This document shows, piece by piece, positions 5,593 to 59,229 of a DNA stretch of 64,000 nucleotides. Position 1 is the stretch's first letter; each line of letters starts with the position of its first letter. The notes under the pieces are model-generated. The model was not told the DNA's origin. It saw nothing but the letters and a program-made list of their open reading frames with translations, and ran no database searches. The stretch covers positions 560,236-624,235 of the forward strand of contig CP066685.1 of assembly GCA_016432345.1 (NCBI GenBank). Reading direction: 5' to 3'. Origin of the DNA: Candidatus Levyibacteriota bacterium. Lineage in GTDB: Bacteria; Patescibacteriota; Microgenomatia; Levybacterales; UBA12049. The translations under genes and the position numbers were made by a program.

Positions 5593-6365
5593 ATTCTTGG
5601 TCGTTCGGGAATTATTACTTCATTGAAAGAAAAGTTTCTCCGATTTTTTTGTGCTATGTATCCTCTGTTTTTTCCTCCTCTTTTTGCAAAATCAAGGGCG
5701 ATATCAGCACGCTTGAATAAACTTTCTGTAGTATCTCCTGGAATCCACTGCGCAACTCCAAAACTGCATGTGATACGCCTCATAAGTTCATCATCTGGAA
5801 CAGTACTGATAGGAGTTCTATTATTTAGTAGATCTTCGCTTATTCCTTGGAGCGAGTATGAGTATCTTATTAAAATTTGTTTTATTCTTGCTGGAGTTAA
5901 TGATCCTTCTATCATTTGAGCAAATTCTTCTCCTCCTATGCGCGCGATTTCATCTGTTTCTCGAGCATTTAGTGTTTTCATGCATCGTAAGATAGCGTCT
6001 CCGCCCGGGTGGCCATATTGGGTATTTGCCATTTTAAAATTATCGTAATCCATAATGATCAGAAATAATGGTTTTTTTGTTCTATCACTTTCTCGTTCTT
6101 TTACTCTTCTTTCTAGCTCGTCATCAAACCACCTTCTTGATTTAAGACCTGTTAGAGGATCAATCATAGAAAGTTCTTGCGCCTTATGTAGTTCATCTCT
6201 AAGGCGTTGTCTAACAAGAGCAGCTGCTACTTTATCTCTTGCTCGTTGATGGAGATAAGCAATATCAGCATTAGGTTGTCTCTTTTCTAGTTCGTCTCTT
6301 TTTTCTAAGATGGCGGCAGTAATTTGTGGATTTTTGCTTAGTTTTAATTCTGTACGTTCAGCCAT
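5589..6365 (-). CDS. GGDEF-domain diguanylate cyclase, stand-alone
   Basis: 258 aa. A coiled-coil N-terminus is followed by DPLTGLKSRR, an active-site GGEEF, and RETD five residues upstream of it (RxxD I-site spacing). It overlaps the gatB stop by 8 nt and the dnaE start by 4 nt. Confidence 0.85.
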   Translation of the reverse strand: MAERTELKLSKNPQITAAILEKRDELEKRQPNADIAYLHQRARDKVAAALVRQRLRDELHKAQELSMIDPLTGLKSRRWFDDELERRVKERESDRTKKPLFLIIMDYDNFKMANTQYGHPGGDAILRCMKTLNARETDEIARIGGEEFAQMIEGSLTPARIKQILIRYSYSLQGISEDLLNNRTPISTVPDDELMRRITCSFGVAQWIPGDTTESLFKRADIALDFAKRGGKNRGYIAQKNRRNFSFNEVIIPERPRI

Positions 6366-11493: not shown

Positions 11494-13241
11494 TTGACAA
11501 ACTCATTATACGGCAAGCTGTTTAGGATGTCACTTTTTGTAGCCCAGCCGCGGCGTGCTACAGAAACGCCATATTTCATCATATCCATTTGCCAAGTGCT
11601 GTGACTGTCAGTATTTATAACAAATTTTACACCTTTTTTTATTGCTTCAAAAACAAGCGAATCTGGTAAATCTAAGCGGGTTGGCCAGGCATTTATTTCT
11701 AAAGCCTTGTTATTTTTTATACAAAACTCAAAAATTTTATCGAAATCAAGTTCGTAACCTGCTCGTTGATTTAATAAACGTCCTGTGGGATGAGCAAGTA
11801 TTTTTGCTTTTGGGTTAGATAATCCCTCTAAAACCCTTTTGGTCATTTCTTCTTTATTCATTGAAAAATTACTGTGAATAGAAACAATGACTGCGTCTAT
11901 TACTGAAAGTGATTTTTCATCGATTGCAACTTTTCCAGAAGCTAAAATATCTAGTTCTAGTAAATTTATTACTCGAACATATTTATTACTCTCATTAAGT
12001 TGTTCGATTTTATCTTTTCGTCTTGATAGTATTGAATATATTTGTGATGATGTATGTTTTGAAACACTTGGGTTATGTTCGGAAAAGCCCAAGTAATTGT
12101 AGCCCAGGGATTCTGCCTTTTTAAGCATGTCTTCCATTGTGTTTTTTCCCATATCATGGCTTGGCTCAATCGGGTAATTCGAATGAATATGCAAATCTCC
12201 CATTATATCTTTAAGTTCAACTAGTTTTGGCAATTTGTTTTGCGCCGCCAGCTCGATTTCTCCTTTGTCTTCCCGCATTTCTGGGGGAATCCATGCTAAT
12301 CCTATGGCTTTATAAAACTTTTCTTCCGTGTCGTATTTTTGTATAGTTTTATGTTTTGCTTTTTTGATGCCATATTCAGATAATGAAAGCCTCTTTTTAA
12401 GGGCAAACTCACGGAGATGAATATTATGGCGCTTGCTGCCGGTAAAATGCTGTAAAAGAGATCCAAAAGCGTCTGGTGGCTGTACCATAAGGTCTATCTG
12501 TTTACCTCCAGAGATTAGAATTGATGCTGTTTGCGATCCCTGCTCAATTACTCTATCTTTGTATGGATAATCAATGAAATGTTTTATGACCTCATCTGGG
12601 AAATTTGTTGCAACTGCAAAGTCTATATCGCCAACAGTTGAAACCATCCGCCGCAGGCTGCCAAGTGGATGCGCTTGGATAACTGCATTTGATGTTTTTA
12701 GATATGCCAATACTTTTTGTGCAAGTTCTGAGGCGTAAGGTAGTACCATGCGTTTTGTTTTAGCCCGGCCTTTTTTATATTCGGAAATTGCTTGAAGAAT
12801 ATCTTCTTGTGATTTGGCGCCAAATCCTTCAAGCGAGGCGATTTTATTTTGTTTGGCAATTTTTTCAAGATCAGAAATTACATTTTTGGGATCTTTTAGC
12901 TTAAATTCTGCGACAAGCTTATGGGCTTTTTTAGGGCCGAATGATGGTACATCCAAAAGTGGAAAAACCGAAGCTGGAATTCCGTCCATTACCCAATTAA
13001 AATGTTTTACTTTACCTGTTTTTATTAATTCTTCAAGATGTTGACGAATTGAATGTCCAATTCCTGGTAATAATTCGAGTTTGTTTTCTAAAAGTAAATC
13101 TTTTACTTCGGAAGTTGAGTTTTCGATTGCATCCGCAGCTTTCTGGTAGGCAATAATTTGGAAGCGAAATTTTCTTTCATCTTTTATAGTATATGCTGCG
13201 GCGACATTACGCAGCAGCGTAGCAATTTCTGTATTTGTCAT
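11478..13241 (-). CDS. Family X DNA polymerase with C-terminal PHP domain (PolX)
   Basis: Start reset to ATG 13241 (MTNTEIATLLRNVAAAY...). It carries the nucleotidyltransferase motif GSLRRMVSTVGDIDFAV and PHP motifs DLHIHSNYP / NTDSH. The 48-codon extension in the track (to 13385) reads through tRNA-Asp on the opposite strand and is spurious. Confidence 0.85.
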   Translation of the reverse strand: MTNTEIATLLRNVAAAYTIKDERKFRFQIIAYQKAADAIENSTSEVKDLLLENKLELLPGIGHSIRQHLEELIKTGKVKHFNWVMDGIPASVFPLLDVPSFGPKKAHKLVAEFKLKDPKNVISDLEKIAKQNKIASLEGFGAKSQEDILQAISEYKKGRAKTKRMVLPYASELAQKVLAYLKTSNAVIQAHPLGSLRRMVSTVGDIDFAVATNFPDEVIKHFIDYPYKDRVIEQGSQTASILISGGKQIDLMVQPPDAFGSLLQHFTGSKRHNIHLREFALKKRLSLSEYGIKKAKHKTIQKYDTEEKFYKAIGLAWIPPEMREDKGEIELAAQNKLPKLVELKDIMGDLHIHSNYPIEPSHDMGKNTMEDMLKKAESLGYNYLGFSEHNPSVSKHTSSQIYSILSRRKDKIEQLNESNKYVRVINLLELDILASGKVAIDEKSLSVIDAVIVSIHSNFSMNKEEMTKRVLEGLSNPKAKILAHPTGRLLNQRAGYELDFDKIFEFCIKNNKALEINAWPTRLDLPDSLVFEAIKKGVKFVINTDSHSTWQMDMMKYGVSVARRGWATKSDILNSLPYNEFVKWLKS

Positions 13242-43880: not shown

Positions 43881-43910
43881 TTGTCAAGAGTTAAGATAAA
43901 TTGATATAAT
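43881..43910 (+). promoter_or_regulatory. Promoter of tRNA-Lys
   Basis: TTGTCA (43881-43886), an 18-nt spacer, then TATAAT (43905-43910). The tRNA starts 10 nt downstream. Confidence 0.5.
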
Positions 43911-43920
43911 TATGTAGTTA

Positions 43921-43992
43921 GGGTCGGTAGCTCAGCGGTAGAGCAGGAGCCTTTTAAGCTCTTGGTCACAGGTTCGATCCCTGTCCGACTCA
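43921..43992 (+). tRNA. tRNA-Lys (TTT), no encoded CCA
   Basis: Hand fold: GGGTCGG TA GCTC AGCGGTA GAGC A GGAGC CTTTTAA GCTCT TGGTC ACAGG TTCGATC CCTGT CCGACTC A. Confidence 0.9.
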
Positions 43993-44002
43993 CAGTAGCG
44001 GG

Positions 44003-44043: not shown

Positions 44044-45546
44044 CTAAACTAGTGTTTCCAGAAATTCCCCAACGACTGCTAAAACTATCGTCATATCTAT
44101 GTTTTTATCTTCCTGTTTATTCTTATTTTCATTTAGTACTGCTATCTCTTGTACAACTTCTTTTAAGTTATCCTCTGCAAGCTTAATTGCTTCATCAGAC
44201 GAGAATTTCATCATTTGTTTGCCTATTAGTTTTTTTTGACTTTCCAATTCAGCAATCTTTTCATCAATTGTCTGGACATCACGTTGGCCTATGGTTAGAT
44301 TATCCTGCCATTTGCTTAAAACCCGTTGCTTGAGTTTCTCAACGCCTTCTTGCGTTACTTTAACTCTGCTAACAAAATTTTTGATGGTTTGCTCAAAGGT
44401 TTCTGCTGGAATTCTAAAATAATGATTTCTTTTATTACAGTGATAGGCGGGATAACGTGTACCATTTCTTCCTCTTGAAGCACTGCCATATAAAGGGTAT
44501 CTACAGGTTGGACACAAAACATATCTTTTATAAGGATAATCAGGATTTTTGACACATTTTTTAAGCCTCCATTCTTCTGGTTTGTTTTTATAGATAGTTA
44601 TTCCGCCATTTTCTTCAGTTAATACAACTTTACCTCTGTTTGCCTTATTAAACAGCTCAATTGATATTAAGCCATCAAATTTTGTTTTAACAGGCTGATC
44701 ATTAGTCCACTTTTCATCGTTTATTCCTGCATAAATCGGTTTACGGATATATTCTACAAAGCGTTTTACCGCAAGTTTTATACCTCCTCGTTCTCCTATA
44801 ACTACAGTTTTATCTTTTGGATCTCTTAGTAAATTTACTCTGGATTTATACCCCATTTTATTGACCTCTTCTATAATTTGTTCATCAGATATAGTTTTTT
44901 TAGCCCTTAACTCAAACATTTTAATAATAAGCGGGGCTTCTTTCGGATGAGGTTTAAGAATAACTCTTTTTCCATTAGGAGTATCTATTTTTACGTTCAT
45001 ATATCCATATGGAGAGGGTCTAACTCGATAACCCATTCTGACGTAACGAATTTCTGCCCCGATCATTCTGCTTAAAATATCTCTAATTTCATCTTTTGCT
45101 CTTTCTGCCTCTAAAATCTCTGACTTTTTAGTTGGAGAATAAACACTCCACGGAAATTCAATACCTAAATGCCCTAAGGTATTAACTTCTGTATTACCTA
45201 TAATCCCATAAATATCAATTAGCCTTACCCCATAATGGGTGAGCTGCATTTTCATATGATCATAAAAGTAAGAACCGCCCCTGGTAAACCTATCAATCGA
45301 TTTAATTATAAAAAGTTGGATATCATTTTTAGGGTTTTTACAGTAATCAATCGCTTCCTGTACAGGCTGTTCCTCTTTAGAAGCTGATTCCATAAAAATG
45401 AAGAATTTTTTTACGTTTATATTGTGGGCTTTGGCGAATTGTTCTATCTGTTCTTTCTGGGCTTGGGGAGAATCGCCCTGTAATCCCTGCTTTGTAGAGG
45501 AAACTCTGATTGCTGCTACTGCATTTTCAATTTTATACGGATTCAT
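44044..45546 (-). CDS. Large serine recombinase
   Basis: 500 aa with the resolvase-type catalytic N-domain (AAIRVSSTKQG, SIDRFTRG), a recombinase domain, the Cys ribbon CPTCRYPL...YHC and a C-terminal coiled coil. Confidence 0.9.
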   Translation of the reverse strand: MNPYKIENAVAAIRVSSTKQGLQGDSPQAQKEQIEQFAKAHNINVKKFFIFMESASKEEQPVQEAIDYCKNPKNDIQLFIIKSIDRFTRGGSYFYDHMKMQLTHYGVRLIDIYGIIGNTEVNTLGHLGIEFPWSVYSPTKKSEILEAERAKDEIRDILSRMIGAEIRYVRMGYRVRPSPYGYMNVKIDTPNGKRVILKPHPKEAPLIIKMFELRAKKTISDEQIIEEVNKMGYKSRVNLLRDPKDKTVVIGERGGIKLAVKRFVEYIRKPIYAGINDEKWTNDQPVKTKFDGLISIELFNKANRGKVVLTEENGGITIYKNKPEEWRLKKCVKNPDYPYKRYVLCPTCRYPLYGSASRGRNGTRYPAYHCNKRNHYFRIPAETFEQTIKNFVSRVKVTQEGVEKLKQRVLSKWQDNLTIGQRDVQTIDEKIAELESQKKLIGKQMMKFSSDEAIKLAEDNLKEVVQEIAVLNENKNKQEDKNIDMTIVLAVVGEFLETLV

Positions 45547-45838: not shown

Positions 45839-46006
45839 ATGTTTGCTAACTGTAAAATGGGGAAAGTTTTTGTAACTGCTTTCCCTGATTTCGAAGAATT
45901 TAGAAAGCATACAAGTGGAATATCGTGGGAAACAGAGGTATGGATTGCTGAAAATCCCGATCATATGATTCACTACAATGGTGATCGCTTCATGGAACCA
46001 AGGTAA
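45839..46006 (+). CDS. Possible small protein (55 aa)
   Basis: Hand-found ORF MFANCKMGKVFVTAFPDFEEFRKHTSGISWETEVWIAENPDHMIHYNGDRFMEPR, below the track cutoff. It is followed 42 nt later by a good terminator hairpin. Confidence 0.35.
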   Translation: MFANCKMGKVFVTAFPDFEEFRKHTSGISWETEVWIAENPDHMIHYNGDRFMEPR

Positions 46007-46048
46007 TTTATTCTATATACTAGTTCATCTAGCAAAATTCTTACATTT

Positions 46049-46074
46049 AAGATAGCCTAAGCAGGCTATCTTTT
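46049..46074 (+). terminator. Rho-independent terminator
   Basis: AAGATAGCC-TAAGCA-GGCTATCTT (9-bp stem) running into TTTT. Confidence 0.6.
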
Positions 46075-46086
46075 ACATATGATTCG

Positions 46087-46317
46087 ATGGATTGCATTAT
46101 TAGATTTTTCATTTTATACTTTATTCAGTCTGAGCAAAAACCTGGCCAACAAGATTATAAAAGGGAATATGAGTATCATCATGATATGCTAGACCATAGT
46201 AGAGAGTTTGATAAATTAGTGGACTCAGTGCCGGAAGACAACACAAAAACTAGAGAAGCAATAAGAGGAATGTTTTATTCCAGACCAGATAAACTAATTG
46301 ATCCAGTGAAATTTTGA
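46087..46317 (+). CDS. Hypothetical small protein (76 aa)
   Basis: ORF from the track with a charged C-terminal half and no motif. Confidence 0.3.
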   Translation: MDCIIRFFILYFIQSEQKPGQQDYKREYEYHHDMLDHSREFDKLVDSVPEDNTKTREAIRGMFYSRPDKLIDPVKF

Positions 46318-46470
46318 AATTAAAACAAGAAGACCCGCCATTATTTGCAGAGGCGAATAAGGTTTATATGGATTACTTGAAGCAGTCCCTTGGGCTAGAG
46401 TGACTTTATAATTGATATTAAAATCCAACAATTTGACATCATGGGTAAAAGAAGCATACTTAATTGAGTT

Positions 46471-47793
46471 ATGGAACCAAAGTCAGAAGGTGCACCAAGA
46501 CAAGCAGAAAAAGCACAGGAACTAACCAAAGTCGGATTTAGCAAATTGGGACAATCCGATATTTTTGAAAGAGGCCCTTTTACCATCGGTGTTAATAACG
46601 ATGGCAGATATTCATTTTACCAGAACATGCAATCTAGACTAGCAATGGAAGCTATTACTGGAATTAAAGTTGCTACAACACAACCGTCAAATGCTCCTTG
46701 GTTAGCTGTCCTTGGAATGCATGAAAAGTGGGGAGAACACGTATCTATGGATGATCCTATTAGTGGATCCTCTATTAGTGGAGCACCCGGGAATGGAAAC
46801 GTTCCAGACTTTAGTGATATCTCGGGCAAAACCATGGAGCAACAGTTAACCGAAGCTGGTTTTACTAATGATAAACAAGGAGCGGGACTTTTTCAACGCA
46901 CATTCGGCAACGGAGAAAATACAGTAAATGTTATTGCTGTTGTTGAAGACGGAAAATTTAAAAAATTAATAAAGGAGAAAAGAATATATGATGATAGCTT
47001 ACTTGAAAAGATGGGATATGAAATAACAGGAGTTGGGGAAAATGAATTGTATGGTGGTCGTACAACACCTGTCCTAAGAGCAGAAAATGATGCATTAACA
47101 TTTGATATAGGATCTGGTGGAGGAACACTAAATGTAAAACTCAAGAGAGAATTAACGCCTGAAGAATTAGGAATTACTCCATTGCCAGAAACAGAACAAC
47201 CAGATGGATTTAGAATCGGAGGCGCAAATTCCACAGATACAATAAGAAGACTAACTACTATTAACGGTCAATCAATTGAAGAGTTAGAACGAAGGATGAG
47301 GCCAGCTTTAAGTATGGATAGACACTCTAACCTTCGTCCAACAGGTGGCATATCCATGGCTGGATTCTTAGGTCCTCAAGAGCGATTACTTGATGTTATG
47401 GCTGCCGACAATGATTATGTCCAATCACAGGGACTAACACATCAGGATTTAGCTAATCAGCTACGATATGCAGAGGAGCTTTATTTCAAACTTGGCGTCC
47501 TAGAATTTACATATCACGGTAGAAGATATGGCGTAAGCATTAAACAATGGCGCGGAATTCAAGATTCTCCCTTTAATGATGGGACAACAACCAATTCCGA
47601 CATACAAATTACCAATCTTGATACAGACACATCATTAAGCGCATCCCTTTTATTGCCAGATATGATAGAACGGTATGGGTTTTATGAAGGAAAGGGTGCT
47701 TCTTATAGACTTGCCCCAGAACAGATTATTGAAGTTTTCGATTTTTTAAAGGAAGAAGGACAACAAAGAGTTCAATGGCCAACGAAGGGTTGA
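46471..47793 (+). CDS. Hypothetical protein (440 aa), no recognisable domain
   Basis: Long ORF with normal amino-acid composition and no TM or signal peptide. It is the first of four co-directional unknown ORFs. Confidence 0.6.
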   Translation: MEPKSEGAPRQAEKAQELTKVGFSKLGQSDIFERGPFTIGVNNDGRYSFYQNMQSRLAMEAITGIKVATTQPSNAPWLAVLGMHEKWGEHVSMDDPISGSSISGAPGNGNVPDFSDISGKTMEQQLTEAGFTNDKQGAGLFQRTFGNGENTVNVIAVVEDGKFKKLIKEKRIYDDSLLEKMGYEITGVGENELYGGRTTPVLRAENDALTFDIGSGGGTLNVKLKRELTPEELGITPLPETEQPDGFRIGGANSTDTIRRLTTINGQSIEELERRMRPALSMDRHSNLRPTGGISMAGFLGPQERLLDVMAADNDYVQSQGLTHQDLANQLRYAEELYFKLGVLEFTYHGRRYGVSIKQWRGIQDSPFNDGTTTNSDIQITNLDTDTSLSASLLLPDMIERYGFYEGKGASYRLAPEQIIEVFDFLKEEGQQRVQWPTKG

Positions 47794-47815
47794 CTTTTCC
47801 ACGCTGCATTGGTAC

Positions 47816-47881
47816 TTATATATGTTACTTAGAATAAAATTATTGAAAATAGCGACTTGCCGAAGGCAAGTAAAATATTAA
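47816..47881 (+). repeat. 66-nt intergenic repeat, copy A, with conserved hairpin
   Basis: It aligns by hand to 58500-58564 (59 of 66 columns identical). The hairpin is ACTTGCC-GAA-GGCAAGT at 47855-47871. Confidence 0.85.
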
Positions 47882-47907
47882 TCAATAATATGCTAAAATT
47901 TTAACCA

Positions 47908-48582
47908 ATGGAAGCTGACGAACAAACTAAACCATTTAATTCATTTAAAGAGTATCTACAAGCGGATCCTCAGGGAGCAAGGGCTGCTCTTGCTTACGAT
48001 TCTTATGCTCTTTTATGTGGTCTCGATAGAGATAAATTTTGGGATGAGCAAGTTTATAACAATCTAAAACAAGTATTGGGAGTAGAAAATCCTGTTATGC
48101 ATGCAGGAGTGCATCTTTTAACTGTTGTAGAACAACGTAGGCATGAGGAAGTAGGTGGACGTAGTCCAGGATCAACTTCTGAATATGCATTTATTGCTAG
48201 AAGACAAAATGAAAGATATAGGAAAGAGCTTGAAGATTGGAAACAGGCAGAGCCAGAGGAGTATGAAAAAGCAAAAGAATTAATAGATGCTATTGCAGAG
48301 GGGAGATTAGAACTATTTGACCAAGCAAGAGTAAAACAGATACTGCACAGTTCAATTTATCATTTCCCTGGAATTGCACTAAGCTACAAAATATACAAAA
48401 ATCAAGAAACCGTCCAAGTATATGAAGAAGAATTAGCCAAAAAGAAGGCAACAGCTGCTCCTGTCCCATCTAGAGAAGGTAAAAGTGCTCGGGAAAGATA
48501 CCAGGAATACCTAAAACAACAAAATCTAGGATCTATTGGTACTTCAGATCAAACTTCTCCCGAGGAAGGTAAAAAAACTTAA
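47908..48582 (+). CDS. Hypothetical protein (224 aa)
   Basis: ORF with a charged, helical-looking sequence and no motif. Confidence 0.55.
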   Translation: MEADEQTKPFNSFKEYLQADPQGARAALAYDSYALLCGLDRDKFWDEQVYNNLKQVLGVENPVMHAGVHLLTVVEQRRHEEVGGRSPGSTSEYAFIARRQNERYRKELEDWKQAEPEEYEKAKELIDAIAEGRLELFDQARVKQILHSSIYHFPGIALSYKIYKNQETVQVYEEELAKKKATAAPVPSREGKSARERYQEYLKQQNLGSIGTSDQTSPEEGKKT

Positions 48583-51274: not shown

Positions 51275-51547
51275 TGTTATCATTTAGAGTTGAAGTTTAA
51301 AGGCCAAACATAAAACAATATGTACAAACAGCAGAAGTTAATATAATTATGTAGTCTTTGTAAGAATATTTTTATTATTGCAAGATGTCGGAATACTGGG
51401 GTTAAGTATACTATTTTAACTGCTGTATGGTTTTGGTCGGTAATAATTAAGGCTTTAGCTTTACTTAAAACCTAAAAACAAAGTCATGATATAATCCAAG
51501 TCAGATTCTGCTCATTTAATCTACTGCCTATGCTGTCCTAAAAGTAT

Positions 51548-54238
51548 ATGGCGCAAACTAATTTTTCTGAAGCTTTTCCTTCATACTTAAAACCTTTATC
51601 TCAACTTCACCTATCTGTTGTTGCTATCATTGGAATCTCAATAGGAATTGCTATCTCCTTTGTTGTTGGGTGGCTTTACCTGATATATTTAAAACTTCGA
51701 AATGCTCATAATCAAAAATACACTCTTTTAGAAATCAAACCAACCAATAAAACGTTAAAATCTCCGCTTTCTACTACACAGTTGTATACAGTACTCCATT
51801 CTCTGGTAGAAGGAGAATCAGGATTTTTATATACCACTCACAAAAGCATTAGTTTAGAAATAGCTTCTACGAAAGAGGATGGGATCAGATTTATTGTCAG
51901 AGTTCCTCAAAAAGAAGCAGGGATAGTTACCAAAAATGTTTATTCATATCTACCTGGAGTTGAGATTAACCAAATTGATGATTATTTCTCACTTAAGCTT
52001 TTTGATATTGATTCTTTTGACCATGTAGGAGTGCAGGAGATGAGACTGACAAACTCCTATCTTCTGCCTCTTGATAACCAGGATTCGCTAGGACAAGTTG
52101 ATCCTATTGCATATATCACAGGACAAATGACACAACTGGTAGAAAATGAATTAGTAGTAGCTCAATTTATCGCCACACCTATTCACAAATCAACTCATGG
52201 CAGTGCTACAGACATAATCAGTCAAGCACAAAAAAGATTAGAGGATAATTTAGATATTTCAGATCTTATTAATAAAACGAAATATAGCTCTATTACGCGT
52301 TTTTTTAATTATTTCATAAACTCCATTATTGTTGATCATGGTGGAGCTGCTGCTGGGTACGTATTAAACCAATGTCTTTCTCTATTTTTAAATATCGAGA
52401 ACAAATCAGATTCTCACTCTAAAAAACCAAAACATAAACAGATTAGTGAACTTGGGGCTCATAAACAAAAGCAGTTTCAAGCTGTTTCCCAAAAAATTAC
52501 CCAACCGTTATTTGATACCACTGTTCGGTTTGTTATCTATACTCCTCACAAAGAAACTATTAAGGATAGATTAAGAGGCATGGTTTCAGGTTTTGAAACC
52601 TCCCAGTCTGACTATCAAAAACTGAAAAAAGGGATGTACCTTAGATCATTCCTAGAAATTAGACGGTTAAATAAGTTTTATTTAATGTTACTCAAAGACC
52701 GTTTACCCTTAAGTTTTAACAGTGTTATTCTATCTGCTTCAGAACTTTCTTCTTTATATCATCTGCCCTATACAATCACCACCAAAACAGAAGATATTGC
52801 CAAAAATTTCTACAACGAGCTGCCAGCTCCGCTTTCTTTAAAGCAAAACGCAAACTTAGATATTGTATTTGCCAAAAACACCTATGGAGGAGTAGTTACC
52901 CCTATTGGAGTAACAAAGCTTGAACGGACTGGACATTTTTTTGTGATTGGTCAAACGAGAAGTGGAAAAACCAACATGATCAAACAAATGATTATTCAAG
53001 ATATTCAAAAAGGGAGAGGGGTGGTACTGGTTGATCCTCATGGAGATTTAGCCAAGGAACTAATTCCTTTTATTCCAGAAGAACGAATCAATGATTTTAT
53101 GTATTTTAATCCACGGGATATTAAACACCCGATGGGGATTAACTTATTGCAGCTTTCCAATATTGACGATGAGGATGAGAAGGAACTGGAAAAAGATATT
53201 GTTTCAGAAAGCGCGATTTCTATTTTACGAAAAATCTTTACCGATAAATCTTCAACCAATGCCTTTAAAATTGAATCAATTTTAAGAAACACCATTCACA
53301 CTGCTTTTTTAACCAAAGATCCGACACTTTTTACTATTTTTGATTTATTAAATAATCCAGAAATCAGATCCCAGGCTTTACAAAAAATAACTGACCCAAG
53401 ACTGATGGATTTTTGGCGGGAAGAATTTGGCAACTCTGGGGATTGGCAACGGGTAAAAATGGTAACTCCAGTTAATGCTCGTATTGGCAGATTTTTATTC
53501 TCTCCTATTATGAAAAGGGTTTTAGAGCAGAAAAAATCTACCATTAATTTTGATGATTTGTTAAACAACGAAAAAATCCTCATCTGTAATTTATCGAAAG
53601 GTGATATTTCTGAAGATAATTGTGAAGTCTTGGGAACGTTAATTATTACTAAAGTGAGACAAGCTGCGGAGAAAAGATCTTTAATGGATCCAAAAGATAG
53701 AAAGCCATTGTATTTATATGTTGATGAGTTTCAAAACTTTGCTACTCCTTCATTTGTAAAGATGCTTTCAGAACTTGGGAAATTTGGTATCAATATTATT
53801 ATTGTTGAACAATCAACCTCACAACAAGCAGATAGAACTCTCACAAATGTTATTTTGGCTAATACTGGTAATGTGATTACTTTCAAAACTGCTAACCCTA
53901 TTGATGAGGACTTAATGCTTGCCCAATTTTCTCCTGATGCGGAAAAAGGTCATATTCCTAATTTGCCAAGATATCACTTTTATATGAAGAAAGGTGCAGT
54001 TGAGCCGGAAGCACCTTTTTCTGGAATAACCGATCCAGTAGAGATAAAAGAAGATAAAGAAAAAGTAGAGCGGTTTATTGAAGCTTCAAGAAAAAACTAT
54101 GCAATAGAATACAAAAAGCCAGAACCTGCCCCTATTGTTGCGCCTCAAACACCACCTGCAAATAACCATAAATCCTTTAAACCAAAAAATACCGCTCCTA
54201 AAAATATAGTGGTAAAACCGTCTAAATACCTGGGTTGA
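51548..54238 (+). CDS. Type IV coupling protein-like / TraD-VirD4-HerA-type DNA-transfer ATPase
   Basis: 896 aa with an N-terminal TM (IIGISIGIAISFVVGWLYLIYL), the Walker A GQTRSGKT and the Walker B LYLYVDEFQNF. A Pro-rich tail ends the protein. Confidence 0.7.
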   Translation: MAQTNFSEAFPSYLKPLSQLHLSVVAIIGISIGIAISFVVGWLYLIYLKLRNAHNQKYTLLEIKPTNKTLKSPLSTTQLYTVLHSLVEGESGFLYTTHKSISLEIASTKEDGIRFIVRVPQKEAGIVTKNVYSYLPGVEINQIDDYFSLKLFDIDSFDHVGVQEMRLTNSYLLPLDNQDSLGQVDPIAYITGQMTQLVENELVVAQFIATPIHKSTHGSATDIISQAQKRLEDNLDISDLINKTKYSSITRFFNYFINSIIVDHGGAAAGYVLNQCLSLFLNIENKSDSHSKKPKHKQISELGAHKQKQFQAVSQKITQPLFDTTVRFVIYTPHKETIKDRLRGMVSGFETSQSDYQKLKKGMYLRSFLEIRRLNKFYLMLLKDRLPLSFNSVILSASELSSLYHLPYTITTKTEDIAKNFYNELPAPLSLKQNANLDIVFAKNTYGGVVTPIGVTKLERTGHFFVIGQTRSGKTNMIKQMIIQDIQKGRGVVLVDPHGDLAKELIPFIPEERINDFMYFNPRDIKHPMGINLLQLSNIDDEDEKELEKDIVSESAISILRKIFTDKSSTNAFKIESILRNTIHTAFLTKDPTLFTIFDLLNNPEIRSQALQKITDPRLMDFWREEFGNSGDWQRVKMVTPVNARIGRFLFSPIMKRVLEQKKSTINFDDLLNNEKILICNLSKGDISEDNCEVLGTLIITKVRQAAEKRSLMDPKDRKPLYLYVDEFQNFATPSFVKMLSELGKFGINIIIVEQSTSQQADRTLTNVILANTGNVITFKTANPIDEDLMLAQFSPDAEKGHIPNLPRYHFYMKKGAVEPEAPFSGITDPVEIKEDKEKVERFIEASRKNYAIEYKKPEPAPIVAPQTPPANNHKSFKPKNTAPKNIVVKPSKYLG

Positions 54239-54321
54239 TAGATGAATTTCAATATCAATCGTTTGATACTGGAAAACAATAAAAATGAAGCTAAAAAGTT
54301 ACATTTCACTCCTTATATACT

Positions 54322-54343
54322 CTTAATATATAAATATATTAAG
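54322..54343. promoter_or_regulatory. Perfect 22-bp palindrome upstream of the replication-relaxation-like gene (candidate operator or oriT repeat)
   Basis: CTTAATATAT-AA-ATATATTAAG, 14 nt upstream of ATG 54358. It is AT-rich, so the statistical weight is modest. Confidence 0.35.
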
Positions 54344-54357
54344 GGAAAGAGAACTTT

Positions 54358-55179
54358 ATGGAAAAACTAAAGAAAACTACACAACCTTTATCTAATCATC
54401 AAGAACGATTAAATCCATTCCTAGAACAAATACTGATCTTTATTTACAAATTCCGCTACTTATCCAGACCTCAAATACAAAAACTTATGAACCACAAACA
54501 TCACCACACTATTATGCTCTGGCTTAACTATTTAGTAAGTAACAAATACTTAAGAAAATACATTGACTCAAAATACAAAATAGAATCAGCCTACTTTTCA
54601 CTGGGGACAATGGCGAGAAAATATTTTTTAAAGACTGCTGAAATCCAGGATATCAATTATCCTAAACTGGATCGTGTTTGGAAAGAAAATAGTTATTCAG
54701 AAAGTTTTAAAAAACACTGTATGTTTTTAGCACATATTTATCTTTCTCTTCTTGATTTAGTCAAATCAGTTGATGAAGGAAAAGGTAAACTGCATTATTT
54801 TTCTAATGCTGACTTAGAAGGGGTCGAGCATATGATTTATCCTTTGCCGGATGCATACTTTACTATTGAGGATAAAGATGGTGCTATTGAGCGTTACTTT
54901 CTTGATGTGTTTTATGATTACACCAGATGGGGTGATATGGAAAAAAGAGTCAAACAATATCTTAATTACTGCAATAAACAAACCTGGCAGTTATATATGA
55001 AACATGATTTTCCAAAAGTGATTTTAGTTTGCCCTAAACCAATATCAAAAAATAACTTGGAAGAATATATTCAAAAGATGTATAAAGAAAAAGGTAAAAG
55101 AGTTGCTTTTTATTTAAGCACAAAAGAAGAGATACGATACCAGGGTATGAATAGCAGAACTTTACATGAAGTAAAATAA
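54358..55179 (+). CDS. Replication-relaxation family-like protein
   Basis: 273 aa with a winged-helix-like N-terminus ILIFIYKFRYLSRPQIQKLM...MLWLNYLVSNKYL. It is adjacent to the coupling ATPase, as in Gram-positive elements. From memory of PF13814, not searched. Confidence 0.5.
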   Translation: MEKLKKTTQPLSNHQERLNPFLEQILIFIYKFRYLSRPQIQKLMNHKHHHTIMLWLNYLVSNKYLRKYIDSKYKIESAYFSLGTMARKYFLKTAEIQDINYPKLDRVWKENSYSESFKKHCMFLAHIYLSLLDLVKSVDEGKGKLHYFSNADLEGVEHMIYPLPDAYFTIEDKDGAIERYFLDVFYDYTRWGDMEKRVKQYLNYCNKQTWQLYMKHDFPKVILVCPKPISKNNLEEYIQKMYKEKGKRVAFYLSTKEEIRYQGMNSRTLHEVK

Positions 55180-55516: not shown

Positions 55517-55610
55517 GTATGTATCACCCCCTTCCTTTGCTTCCTAAATAATTATTTTTAGGTAGCAGCCTGCCTGCTACCAATACATGCTGCAAGCTTA
55601 GCGGGGTGAG

Positions 55611-55658
55611 TTTTGCAAGGGCGACGAAGAATGAGGAGTGCACTTTACCCTTGCAAAA
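55611..55658. repeat. Inverted repeat TTTTGCAAGGG / CCCTTGCAAAA (11-bp arms, 26-nt loop)
   Basis: Arms lie at 55611-55621 and 55648-55658. The right arm is part of the 14-mer ACCCTTGCAAAATG, which recurs at 58567-58580. Confidence 0.7.
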
Positions 55659-55730
55659 TGAGGGGTGCAACCCCTAAAAAGAGCTAGGAACACTTAGACA
55701 AATTTTGAGAATTTGAGGAGTACTTTTATT

Positions 55731-57862: not shown

Positions 57863-58336
57863 TTATCCCCATTTTCTAATTCTTTCCAAGATAGAGTCAT
57901 CCAAAACTGCCGCTTGTCTTTGTAAACTAGCACAATACTCAATATCATCTTTTGATGGGTTTTTATTTTCATAGGGACCAGGTGTTTGTCTGATTGCGCA
58001 TAAAACCCACAAACCTAAGTATCTTCTTATGTCATCTGCTATTGACTTATCTAATCCTTCTACTTGTGAGGCAATATAATGGATATGTCTTTGGCTTCCA
58101 GGCATAGCATTGTAGCCTACAGTTGAACCTTCGGTACAAATAGCAATAACCTCTTTTGCAAACTCTCGCTTCTTCTTTTGAACAGCCTCCCGTTTATTAA
58201 AATATTCGTCAATAAATTTACTCCCAAATTTAGTAATCAATGTCAAAAATACCCCCAATGTACCACCGGCAATAAAGAAGGTAATATTTATAGTTGTAAA
58301 AAAATTATTTACCGTAACAGTTGATATTTCTTGCAT
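57863..58336 (-). CDS. Hypothetical protein with one N-terminal TM helix
   Basis: 157 aa with FFTTINITFFIAGGTLGVFLTLITKF. It lies 15 nt upstream of the HEPN-like ORF. Confidence 0.5.
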   Translation of the reverse strand: MQEISTVTVNNFFTTINITFFIAGGTLGVFLTLITKFGSKFIDEYFNKREAVQKKKREFAKEVIAICTEGSTVGYNAMPGSQRHIHYIASQVEGLDKSIADDIRRYLGLWVLCAIRQTPGPYENKNPSKDDIEYCASLQRQAAVLDDSILERIRKWG

Positions 58337-58499
58337 AATTATGATTTGATTTATAATCTTTCTACAATTTTTATTTGAGCTTTGATCAGACCGTAGAGCC
58401 TATATAAACGGATGGCTCAATTTTAGCAAAGTTCTTGCATTTAAGAAAGTCTAAGTAAGCTATCTTTTAAATTCGATCAAATGAATTAACTCTTCCGCA

Positions 58500-58564
58500 T
58501 TATATATGTTACTTAGAATTAAAATATTGAAAATAGCGACCTTCCGAAGGAAGGTAAATATTAA
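58500..58564 (+). repeat. 66-nt intergenic repeat, copy B, with compensated hairpin
   Basis: Same orientation as copy A. The hairpin is ACCTTCC-GAA-GGAAGGT at 58539-58555. The 14-mer ACCCTTGCAAAATG follows immediately (58567-58580). Confidence 0.85.
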
Positions 58565-58594
58565 ATACCCTTGCAAAATGTGAGGGGGCGCAAC

Positions 58595-59053
58595 CTACTT
58601 TGAATATTTATAAATAAAGAGATTTTTTATTGAATTCTTCTCAAGATTTTTAGAAGTGGTGATAATAATGTCTTCGATTTCGTCACCACCCAGTGACTTC
58701 ATCTCACTACTATCACCTAAAAACTTATCCCATAAGGACTTAAGGAAGTCTTTTCTTTTACCAGGAATACGGATACCAGCTATTGCTACAGATTTTGCAT
58801 TATACAGATCAGCAAGCGTAAAAGCAGATCTCAAGGATTGATGTAATCCTACATAATTTATTCTGGATTCTTCATTGTTATGATCTGCTATAGGCATAAA
58901 AATAACATGCTTGGCTTTTAACTCATATCCCTTAGTCATAACTGCATAACCAACCTCACAATATCCTATTGTTGTCACTTCTTTTACTAAATCTTTACCA
59001 GCTTTTTCAAAGATATTTTTAATTAAACTTTGTTTAGATTCATGTTTAAACAA
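58595..59053 (-). CDS. Macro-domain-like protein; true N-terminus probably upstream (frame open to 59185)
   Basis: The track ORF starts at TTG 59053. The same frame stays open for 44 more codons, back to the TAG at 59188-59186, and encodes ...QIATSGDITDFKGDVIIIPCDSELSYTK..., the GDIT first-strand motif of macro domains. Later segments AKHVIFMP and NAKSVAIAGI also fit. No ATG, GTG or TTG occurs in the extension. Confidence 0.5.
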   Translation of the reverse strand: MFKHESKQSLIKNIFEKAGKDLVKEVTTIGYCEVGYAVMTKGYELKAKHVIFMPIADHNNEESRINYVGLHQSLRSAFTLADLYNAKSVAIAGIRIPGKRKDFLKSLWDKFLGDSSEMKSLGGDEIEDIIITTSKNLEKNSIKNLFIYKYSK

Positions 59054-59229
59054 TCGGTAATCAGGATTGGGAGAAATGGTTTTAGTATAACTAAGTTCAG
59101 AGTCACACGGAATTATAATTACATCACCCTTAAAATCAGTTATATCTCCGCTTGTGGCAATTTGTATATTTATATTTTTACTGTACTATACTTATGTGCA
59201 AATCTAATCCACCTCGGCCGTGGATAGCA

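Follow-up and report, generated by a model that had tools for sequence, protein, structure and literature searches.

A repeated intergenic hairpin with compensated stem changes, possibly a minus-strand terminator-type module at cassette boundaries in a mobile island of a CPR bacterium

A 66-nt repeat, here called D3, occurs twice in a 64,000-nt stretch of the genome of a Candidatus Levyibacteriota bacterium (contig CP066685.1, positions 560,236 to 624,235; the window below is this whole stretch, and coordinates refer to it). The two copies, A and B, contain a hairpin whose stem has changed in sequence while the pairing was kept, and a third copy with a further compensated pair was found in a related island on contig L093. 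The selected core of D3 would be a 7-bp hairpin with a 3-nt loop, followed on its 3' side on the minus strand by a U-rich tract. With slightly less than even confidence, we read D3 as a minus-strand terminator-type hairpin module that marks cassette boundaries in a mobile island of this member of the candidate phyla radiation (CPR), where it may act as an intrinsic-terminator-type 3'-end structure for minus-strand transcripts.

The repeat of copies A and B is real and not due to chance. The two copies align over 66 columns, with 59 identical positions, six mismatches and one 1-nt gap, and they agree throughout two blocks, block 1 (TTATATATGTTACTTAGAAT, 20/20) and block 2 (TATTGAAAATAGCGAC, 16/16). 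These figures, as well as the hairpin sequences, read exactly as the first-pass annotation of this DNA had given them. In a sensitive self-BLAST of the whole window the pair was recovered with E = 2e-13 and only one other repeat (D2, described below) was found, while the 20-mer of block 1 has two matches in the window against zero expected from 100 shuffles. Both copies lie inside the island, in direct orientation and 10.7 kb apart. Further homology was observed upstream, where 11 of 17 positions match between 47787-47803 at locus A and 58483-58499 at locus B and all six mismatches are transitions; between this segment and D3, copy A holds 12 additional nucleotides. The homology stops 9 nt past the stem in the plus-strand direction. 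As described earlier, copy A is located between two plus-strand open reading frames (ORFs; 46471-47793 and 47908-48582) and copy B between two minus-strand ORFs (57863-58336 and 58595-59053).

All seven stem pairs are Watson-Crick in each of the two copies, two of them are altered on both sides, and four of the six substitutions fall in the stem. When the six observed substitutions were placed at random in 2,000,000 trials, a fully paired stem with at least two double-changed pairs occurred at a frequency of 9e-5, and a fully paired stem given four stem substitutions at a frequency of 0.01, which bears out the earlier claim of a hairpin with two compensated pairs. The window stems have four G-C pairs among their 7 bp, with RNA folding energies of -8.6 to -9.4 kcal/mol and z of about -3.3 to -3.9. 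The stem in L093 (AATTTCC/GGAAATT) adds a third compensated pair. Over the three copies 21 of 21 stem cells are paired and three of the seven pairs are altered on both sides, with none altered on one side only; sliding the partner by 1-3 columns in this three-copy alignment lowers the pairing to 19-52%. Taking L093 as the outgroup assigns the double change at pair 5 to the A lineage and that at pair 3 to the B lineage, which indicates that the stem was kept in both lineages. The core shared by the three copies consists of TTGAAAA.A.CGA, the hairpin, whose CCGAAGG centre is invariant, and TAAA; neither the loop nor its two closing C-G pairs vary. Selection on the hairpin structure, which had been proposed from the two window copies, is supported and is strengthened by the third compensated pair, as this comes from an independent copy in which no pair is broken. 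Two other structures were considered and rejected, namely a cUUCGg tetraloop on the minus strand, for which the CTTCGG register is incompatible with the stem, and a longer predicted hairpin around copy A, whose outer arms are absent from copy B.

The third copy (L093 7152-7191, ATTTTTTTGAAAAAACCGAATTTCCGAAGGAAATTAAAAA) was found among the loci of protein relatives with R1, a covariance model built from copies A and B only, at 28.7 bits and E ~ 7e-4. L093 carries a related island, with a coupling protein 61% identical to that of the window and 2.8 kb that align to window 52422-55177 at 72% DNA identity. Its copy is without block 1 and begins 3 nt past the stop codon of a homologue of ORF273. 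The contig ends at the hairpin, and synteny with the window predicts a convergent minus-strand gene beyond it. This is the one additional copy that came out of the search for further copies and covariation suggested in the first-pass annotation. The R1 search of the window gave nothing above 13.8 bits beyond A and B, and unfiltered searches with R1 and with R2, a three-sequence core model, over the 64-kb window and L046 (4.3 kb beyond it) returned A and B only, the next best match having 14.7 bits and E ~ 3. No additional copies were found with R2 in the fetched loci. A match in L039 (17.6 bits, E ~ 1) lies inside a called gene and was discounted, and a positional similarity at L091 2233-2259 (alignment score 13, after an ORF440 homologue) was not counted as a copy.

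Wider scans were likewise negative. The 29 loci with TATTGAAAATAGCGAC in IMG/VR viral contigs were all coding or chance, and the five matches of the core pattern in viral contigs were coding. The pattern TAGAAT-N4-10-TTGAAAATAGCGAC gave seven chance matches in GTDB (one genome per species, 185,579 species genomes) and ACTTAGAAT-N6-8-TTGAAAATAG gave 36 chance matches in the JGI metagenomes, neither collection including the source genome. A sensitive BLASTN against plasmids and phages gave no D3 match, and the Rfam scan of the window returned only four tRNAs at the gathering threshold. Scanning viral contigs with ORF440 and the coupling protein as guides gave nothing, the ORF440 homologues occur in unrelated contexts without D3, and look-ups by exact protein sequence yielded nothing but identical copies of this same genome that came from other samples.

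The minus-strand terminator reading draws on what adjoins the stem and on where the copies are placed. On the minus strand the stem is followed by CGCTATTTTC in copies A and B and by CGGTTTTTTC in L093, where the U-rich tract is CGGUUUUUUC. Copies A and B were terminator-like on the minus strand only in a consensus scan, the plus-strand tail being A-rich. Hairpin B lies 39 nt past the stop codon (58595-58597) of the minus-strand macro-domain gene and its T-tail is among the best of the few post-gene hairpins of the window. The slot of the L093 copy is occupied in the window by a 13-bp minus-strand terminator (55211-55179) of the convergent DUF2958 gene. Related hairpins at 55661-55675 and in L091 (c1 and c2) likewise have their T-run on the minus strand, and L091 c2 sits between two plus-strand genes in the same manner as D3-A. 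Among the functions listed in the first-pass annotation, a bidirectional terminator with conserved flanks comes nearest, as a terminator fits best, but the element is one-directional with a U-tract on the minus strand only. The accompanying argument, that the sense and antisense placement excludes a one-directional terminator, fails because copy B and the L093 copy are both placed where a minus-strand terminator would be expected and only copy A is misplaced.

Hairpins of at least 6 bp with at least three G-C pairs were observed within 120 nt past the stop codon for 13 of the 53 long ORFs in the window. Few of these have a T-rich tail, so canonical terminators look rare in this genome.

Table 1. 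Window coordinates of D3, the associated intergenic modules and the main genes of the island.
Feature	Position	Strand	Description
D3 copy A	47816-47881		66-nt repeat; 100.7 bits with model R1; block 1 (47816-47835), 7-nt variable spacer, block 2 (47841-47856), hairpin, TAAAATATTAA tail
D3 copy B	58500-58564		65 nt; 89% identity to copy A; 97.2 bits with model R1
Hairpin A	47855-47871	-	ACTTGCC-GAA-GGCAAGT (plus reading); 7-bp stem, 3-nt loop; minus-strand RNA ACUUGCC-UUC-GGCAAGU; RNA folding -8.6 kcal/mol (minus), -9.2 kcal/mol (plus)
Hairpin B	58539-58555	-	ACCTTCC-GAA-GGAAGGT (plus reading); ACCUUCC-UUC-GGAAGGU on minus strand
U-rich tract A	47845-47854	-	CGCUAUUUUC; directly 3' of hairpin A, within conserved block 2
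U-rich tract B	58529-58538	-	CGCUAUUUUC; directly 3' of hairpin B
D2 copy A	46030-46093	+	10-bp hairpin AAGATAGCCT-AAGC-AGGCTATCTT, then TTTTACAT; plus-strand terminator-like
D2 copy B	58424-58487	+	80% identity to D2-A; ends 12 nt before D3-B
D4	58566-58595		TACCCTTGCAAAATGTGAGGGGGCGCAACC; directly after D3-B; resembles 55646-55672 (z = 5.0)
Cassette segment	46094-47786	+	1.69 kb; ORF76 (46087-46317) and ORF440 (46471-47793); absent at locus B
Large serine recombinase	44044-45546	-	sole recombinase in island
Restriction-endonuclease remnant	45839-46006		55-aa ORF; BsuBI/PstI C-terminal part, profile positions 106-153 of 154, E = 4e-18; directly upstream of D2
ORF224	47908-48582	+	first of plus-strand run (then ORF150, ORF662) to coupling protein and ORF273
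VirD4/TrwB-like coupling protein	51548-54238	+	in plus-strand run
ORF273, MOBC-like	54358-55179	+	weak Replic_Relax match, 20.0 bits against cut-off 25.3, profile positions 2-179 of 191
Genes after ORF273		-	DUF2958, TspO, three unknown genes, macro-domain gene, DUF6602
Macro-domain gene	58595-59053	-	3' end followed by D4, then D3-B hairpin

The surroundings of the two copies differ by a gene cassette, and it is here that the second repeat, D2, comes in. D2-A is placed after the restriction-endonuclease fragment and its final 7 nt are the start of ORF76 (ATGGATT). The hairpin of D2-B has decayed, with two mismatches and one G-T pair and a fold no better than that of shuffled sequence (z = +0.3), and it faces the plus strand, on which there is no gene for it to serve. 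D2 and D3 are 1.7 kb apart at locus A, with ORF76 and ORF440 between them, whereas they adjoin at locus B. The D2 homology continues past the ATG of ORF76 (ATGGATT at locus A, ATGAATT at locus B), and that of D3 sets in with the final codon and stop of ORF440 (GGGTTGACTTTTCCACG at A, GAATTAACTCTTCCGCA at B), transitions being the only mismatches. At the junction the two homologies overlap by a 4-nt RRTT microhomology, and locus B retains the remnant ATG AAT TAA (58481-58489). As B can be aligned to both flanks of A, locus B corresponds to locus A minus 46094-47786. ORF440 has its own promoter-like site, TTGACA-16-CATACT at 46433-46460. The D4-like sequence at 55646-55672 falls in a conserved non-coding region upstream of the DUF2958 gene. 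The spacer 58424-58595 is thus pieced together from fragments of three non-coding modules, D2, D3 and D4, and the sequences on both sides of this patchwork are unrelated. That the copies might delimit gene cassettes had been raised as a check in the first-pass annotation, and D2 and D3 were indeed found to bound a two-gene segment present at A and missing at B.

On the terminator reading, the integrated, mobilisable island would contain a small group of intergenic modules with hairpins (D2, D3 and D4), beside which gene cassettes are gained, lost or swapped; the modules appear fixed, while cassettes of either orientation would be exchanged. The hairpin itself may terminate or stabilise RNA. 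D2-B has decayed where there is no plus-strand gene and D3-B is intact where it would serve the macro-domain gene, and this favours a minus-strand terminator-type function. Copy A might be retained as an insulator of the ORF76-ORF440 cassette from antisense read-in; alternatively, it might be the 3' hairpin of the ORF440 mRNA or a recombination passenger travelling with its flank. The conserved flanks would be recombination patches between related elements.

Several observations weigh against a terminator. Copy A has plus-strand genes on both sides, and no minus-strand gene or promoter-like site was found upstream of it on that strand. Block 1 is identical at 20 of 20 positions though it lies past the U-tract, where a plain terminator imposes no constraint, and it is absent from L093. 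Neither the orientation of copy A nor this perfectly conserved 20-nt block is accounted for by the terminator reading. With 7 bp the stem is short. The U run is preceded by CGC or CGG, three bases without a U, so that it resembles a terminator U-tract only loosely, and no more than three copies are known. At -4.1 to -4.7 kcal/mol the L093 hairpin is weak and folds no better than shuffles. In a column-shuffle control, which is unimpressive with only three sequences aligned, the observed value was reached by 19 of 500 shuffles. L091 2233-2259 is a possible fourth positional homologue in which a 1-nt deletion breaks the stem register. Finally, terminator-like sites in a 20-kb stretch number 12 against 12.3 in shuffled sequence, so the pattern match alone is weak evidence.

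It is unlikely that D3 is instead a plus-strand promoter, with the TAGAAT of block 1 as its -10 box, followed by a 5'-leader hairpin for ORF224 and the transfer operon. Transcription would then start about 7 nt downstream of TAGAAT and the hairpin, about 14 nt into the leader, would be an mRNA stabiliser or attenuator, with copy B as an orphan promoter or an antisense promoter into the macro-domain gene. TAGAAT is perfectly conserved while the next 7 nt hold two of the six substitutions, copy A lies 72 nt upstream of ORF224, and the ORF224 homologue of L037 has a TATAAT at a comparable distance together with a shared 23-mer by its start codon. However, the scan gave no sigma-70-type plus-strand site, and no promoter-like match (at least 9/12) overlaps A or B on either strand; -10-like hexamers were all that could be seen, namely TAGAAT on the plus strand and, on the minus strand, TATAAG in A and TATAAT in B. 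A promoter at TAGAAT was rejected for want of a usable -35 box (TTGGTA at 15-nt spacing in A, none in B), whereas other promoters, such as those at 46433-46460, of tRNA-Lys and in L087 and L091, have a clear TTGAC-type -35. In addition, L093 keeps the hairpin core at a gene 3' end without block 1, and no plus-strand gene follows copy B for 1.5 kb. Four ORF224 homologues were found, three of them distant and on short contigs (L037-L039), where D3 is absent upstream of the gene; the fourth (P0001, L040) is a piece of the window itself, truncated within the gene, and is uninformative. Similar doubt attaches to the possibility that one or both window copies are functionless relics of recombination between related elements, with paired stem changes that arose from template switching and not from selection. 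Intrastrand template switching, which copies one arm of a palindrome onto the other, is an established mutational mechanism, and templated quasi-palindrome correction would yield exactly compensated changes. The patchwork of D2, D3 and D4 fragments at locus B with unrelated sequence on either side, the visible decay of D2-B and the lack of an obvious client gene for copy A all agree with a relic. On the other hand, D3 is 89% identical with unbroken 20/20 and 16/16 blocks while the adjacent D2 is 80% identical; if D2 represents the neutral rate, the 36 unchanged positions have by our arithmetic a probability of about 0.8^36 = 3e-4. The three compensated pairs are independent and occur in different lineages, and the invariance of the loop and its two closing pairs also speaks against a relic.

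The remaining explanations have lower probability. We consider it quite improbable that D3 works at the DNA level, its hairpin being extruded or formed in transferred single-stranded DNA, as an oriT-like (origin of transfer) nick region for a relaxase or as a cassette site for a recombinase. In its specific form, given the same small chance, D3 and its flank would be a nick or recombination site for a divergent MOBC-like protein or another unrecognised enzyme, and cassettes such as ORF76-ORF440 would have moved between sites. Among the products of the island are a VirD4-like coupling protein and a protein weakly matched to Replic_Relax, the L093 copy adjoins the relaxase-like gene, and D3 is an inverted repeat with a conserved 13-nt flank, which is the usual layout of an oriT. 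The copies also bracket or border cassette differences. The part of the first-pass suggestion of a DNA site that concerns cassette boundaries is supported in an unforeseen way, with D2 and D3 bracketing a 1.7-kb two-gene segment absent at locus B. An oriT function is poorly supported. Two direct copies occur in one element and the positions differ from one element to another, the hairpin as DNA has only moderate stability (-4.1 to -6.3 kcal/mol), no known nick consensus was found in D3, the A/B junction lies outside the hairpin, and a palindrome at 54320-54345 is a much better oriT or operator candidate. The only recombinase is a large serine recombinase. Sites of such enzymes are symmetric about a 2-bp core, whereas the D3 loop has 3 nt, and an att site of this enzyme was rejected for its odd 3-nt centre and perfect short arms. 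The copies were also rejected as attL and attR of an inner element, since no integrase lies between them and they are only 89% identical, and as an integron attC, since the perfect 7-bp stem is without the attC layout and the recombinase at 44044-45546 is of the large serine type. Very unlikely, in our view, is a dispersed small hairpin repeat of the REP (repetitive extragenic palindromic), BOX or MITE (miniature inverted-repeat transposable element) kind spreading through intergenic regions. D3 is short, intergenic and hairpin-forming, with conserved flanks and either orientation to its neighbours, but R1 and R2 found only two copies in the 64 kb and the 4.3 kb beyond, both in the island. Around D3, neither a target-site duplication nor terminal inverted repeats outside the hairpin were seen, and the exact-pattern scans of the 185,579 species genomes, the JGI metagenomes and IMG/VR were without a homologue. 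A plus-strand small RNA gene, which had also been put forward in the first-pass annotation, is scarcely credible. Its sequence is conserved, the hairpin covaries and a -10-like hexamer lies upstream; against this, the scans gave neither a sigma-70-type promoter nor a terminator downstream of the hairpin on the plus strand, where the tail is A-rich, and Rfam gave no family for it at the gathering threshold, while the homology of the copies ends 9 nt past the stem and the L093 copy is without the promoter-like block.

Compared with known systems, D3 shares with intrinsic terminators a G+C-containing stem-loop, a U-rich tract on the transcribed (minus) strand, a stem sequence free to vary while pairing is kept, and the placement of copy B 39 nt past a stop codon and of the L093 copy between the end of one gene and a convergent gene predicted from synteny. 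It differs in the three non-U bases before the U run, in its short stem (7 bp, -4 to -9 kcal/mol), in the conservation of the loop and of a further 20-nt block that a terminator does not need, and in copy A having no co-oriented upstream gene. The promoter-early stem-loop cassettes (PeSLs) of T4-type phages (PMC2839356, PMC4122927) are composite promoter-terminator repeats that border accessory genes and mediate modular shuffling (PMC2839356). The modules described here are likewise repeated, composite and intergenic, with a terminator-like stem-loop, and they border accessory genes of unknown function in a mobile genome. As in PeSLs, the ends of indels or replacements lie beside the modules, here at locus B, which is without ORF76-ORF440, and in L091, where ORF115 and the ORF440 homologue lie between hairpin repeats. 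Differences were observed in that D3 has no detectable consensus sigma-70 promoter on either strand, that two copies per element are known against dozens of PeSLs, that the D2 and D3 flanking the cassette are not homologous to each other, that the A/B junction falls outside the hairpin, at a 4-nt microhomology, and not at a crossover inside a shared module, and that these modules belong to a chromosomal island of a CPR bacterium and not to a phage. D3 is not a member of the PeSL family, but by analogy the set of modules is reminiscent of PeSLs.

REPs and bacterial interspersed mosaic elements (BIMEs) of enterobacteria are intergenic palindromes in either orientation, which can act as 3' mRNA stabilisers or weak terminators and have compensated stems. 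D3 resembles them as a short intergenic palindrome with a compensated stem and either orientation. However, REPs number in the hundreds across a genome and are served by a transposase of their own (RAYT), whereas D3 has two copies in one island and no RAYT gene is present. The oriT sites of MOBC systems (pAD1, CloDF13) are similar in that D3 is an inverted repeat with a conserved flank in an element with coupling and Replic_Relax-like proteins, its L093 copy adjoining the latter. In general a mobilisable element has a single oriT, most often placed between its coupling-protein and relaxase genes, but the position between these two genes is held here by the other, better conserved palindrome (54320-54345) and not by D3.

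The first 43 kb of the window contain housekeeping genes including dnaE, gatA, pyrG, uvrB and pilB, and the integrated island extends from tRNA-Lys (43921-43993) onward. Three independent assemblies end at 44059, just past tRNA-Lys and 15 nt inside the recombinase gene, which fits a strain-variable insertion. The island also encodes an OLD-family nuclease, and beyond the window DUF4420, Z1, HATPase_c_3 and a DNA methylase follow, L046 reaching the equivalent of position 68336; the macro domain, DUF6602, the OLD nuclease and the genes beyond make up the defence cluster of the island. ORF273 has no relative among solved structures. Replic_Relax (PF13814), to which it is weakly matched, represents the MOBC relaxase class (PMC5357655). 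Thousands of VirD4-like genes and few recognised relaxases, with MOBC as the commonest class, have been reported in Patescibacteria (PMC12102498).

Several other conserved or recurring non-coding sequences were observed. The AT-rich palindrome at 54320-54345 (CTCTTAATATAT-AA-ATATATTAAGGG) lies just upstream of ORF273 and is conserved in L093 (~6280-6310) and L092 (~12840-12870), where the coupling proteins are 54-61% identical; it is a far better candidate oriT or operator than D3. Upstream of the DUF2958 gene, the non-coding region 55517-55730 is strongly conserved in L091 670-872 (local alignment score 58, z = 37), with an identical 21-nt hairpin (GGTAGCAG-CCTGC-CTGCTACC) and an 11-bp long-range inverted repeat (TTTTGCAAGGG / CCCTTGCAAAA), and has no Rfam match. 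L091 has its own intergenic repeat pair (789-813 and 2288-2312) around ORF115 and the ORF440 homologue, with the T-run on the minus strand in both and a compensated change between their hairpins (AGGGA...TCCCT and AGGGG...CCCCT). Another shared non-coding fragment links 59087-59122, in the spacer between the macro-domain and DUF6602 genes, to L091 2316-2353, the promoter-proximal part of a spacer there (ATAACTAAG...GGAATTA.AATTAC, z = 4.8). The 21 nt upstream of tRNA-Lys (43898-43918, with a TATAAT box) recur with 19 of 21 matches at 51335-51355, inside the 273-nt spacer upstream of the coupling-protein gene. The 23-mer AAATATTAATCAATAATATG beside ORF224 (47873-47892), which overlaps the final 9 nt of D3-A, is conserved at 21 of 23 positions at L037 296-318, where the protein is 54% identical. 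Its ATG is the start codon in L037; in the window it opens a 4-codon ORF and ORF224 begins 18 nt later.

A terminator-type hairpin is in itself ordinary and of modest value. D3 nevertheless shows cleanly, and with an independent third copy, how a stem has evolved by compensated changes in a bacterium of the CPR, a group for which few non-coding signals have been described. It also points to better candidates for cis sites nearby, at 54320-54345 and 55517-55730, and the island with its better conserved cis sites is arguably more interesting than D3. D2, D3 and D4 together suggest that this tRNA-linked island family evolves by cassette swapping at short conserved hairpin modules. Thousands of Patescibacteria genomes are reported to encode coupling proteins of this kind, in most cases with no recognised relaxase (PMC12102498), and if the improbable reading of D3 as a DNA site were true, it would give a first cis-acting handle on mobilisation and shuffling in the apparently relaxase-poor islands of CPR bacteria.

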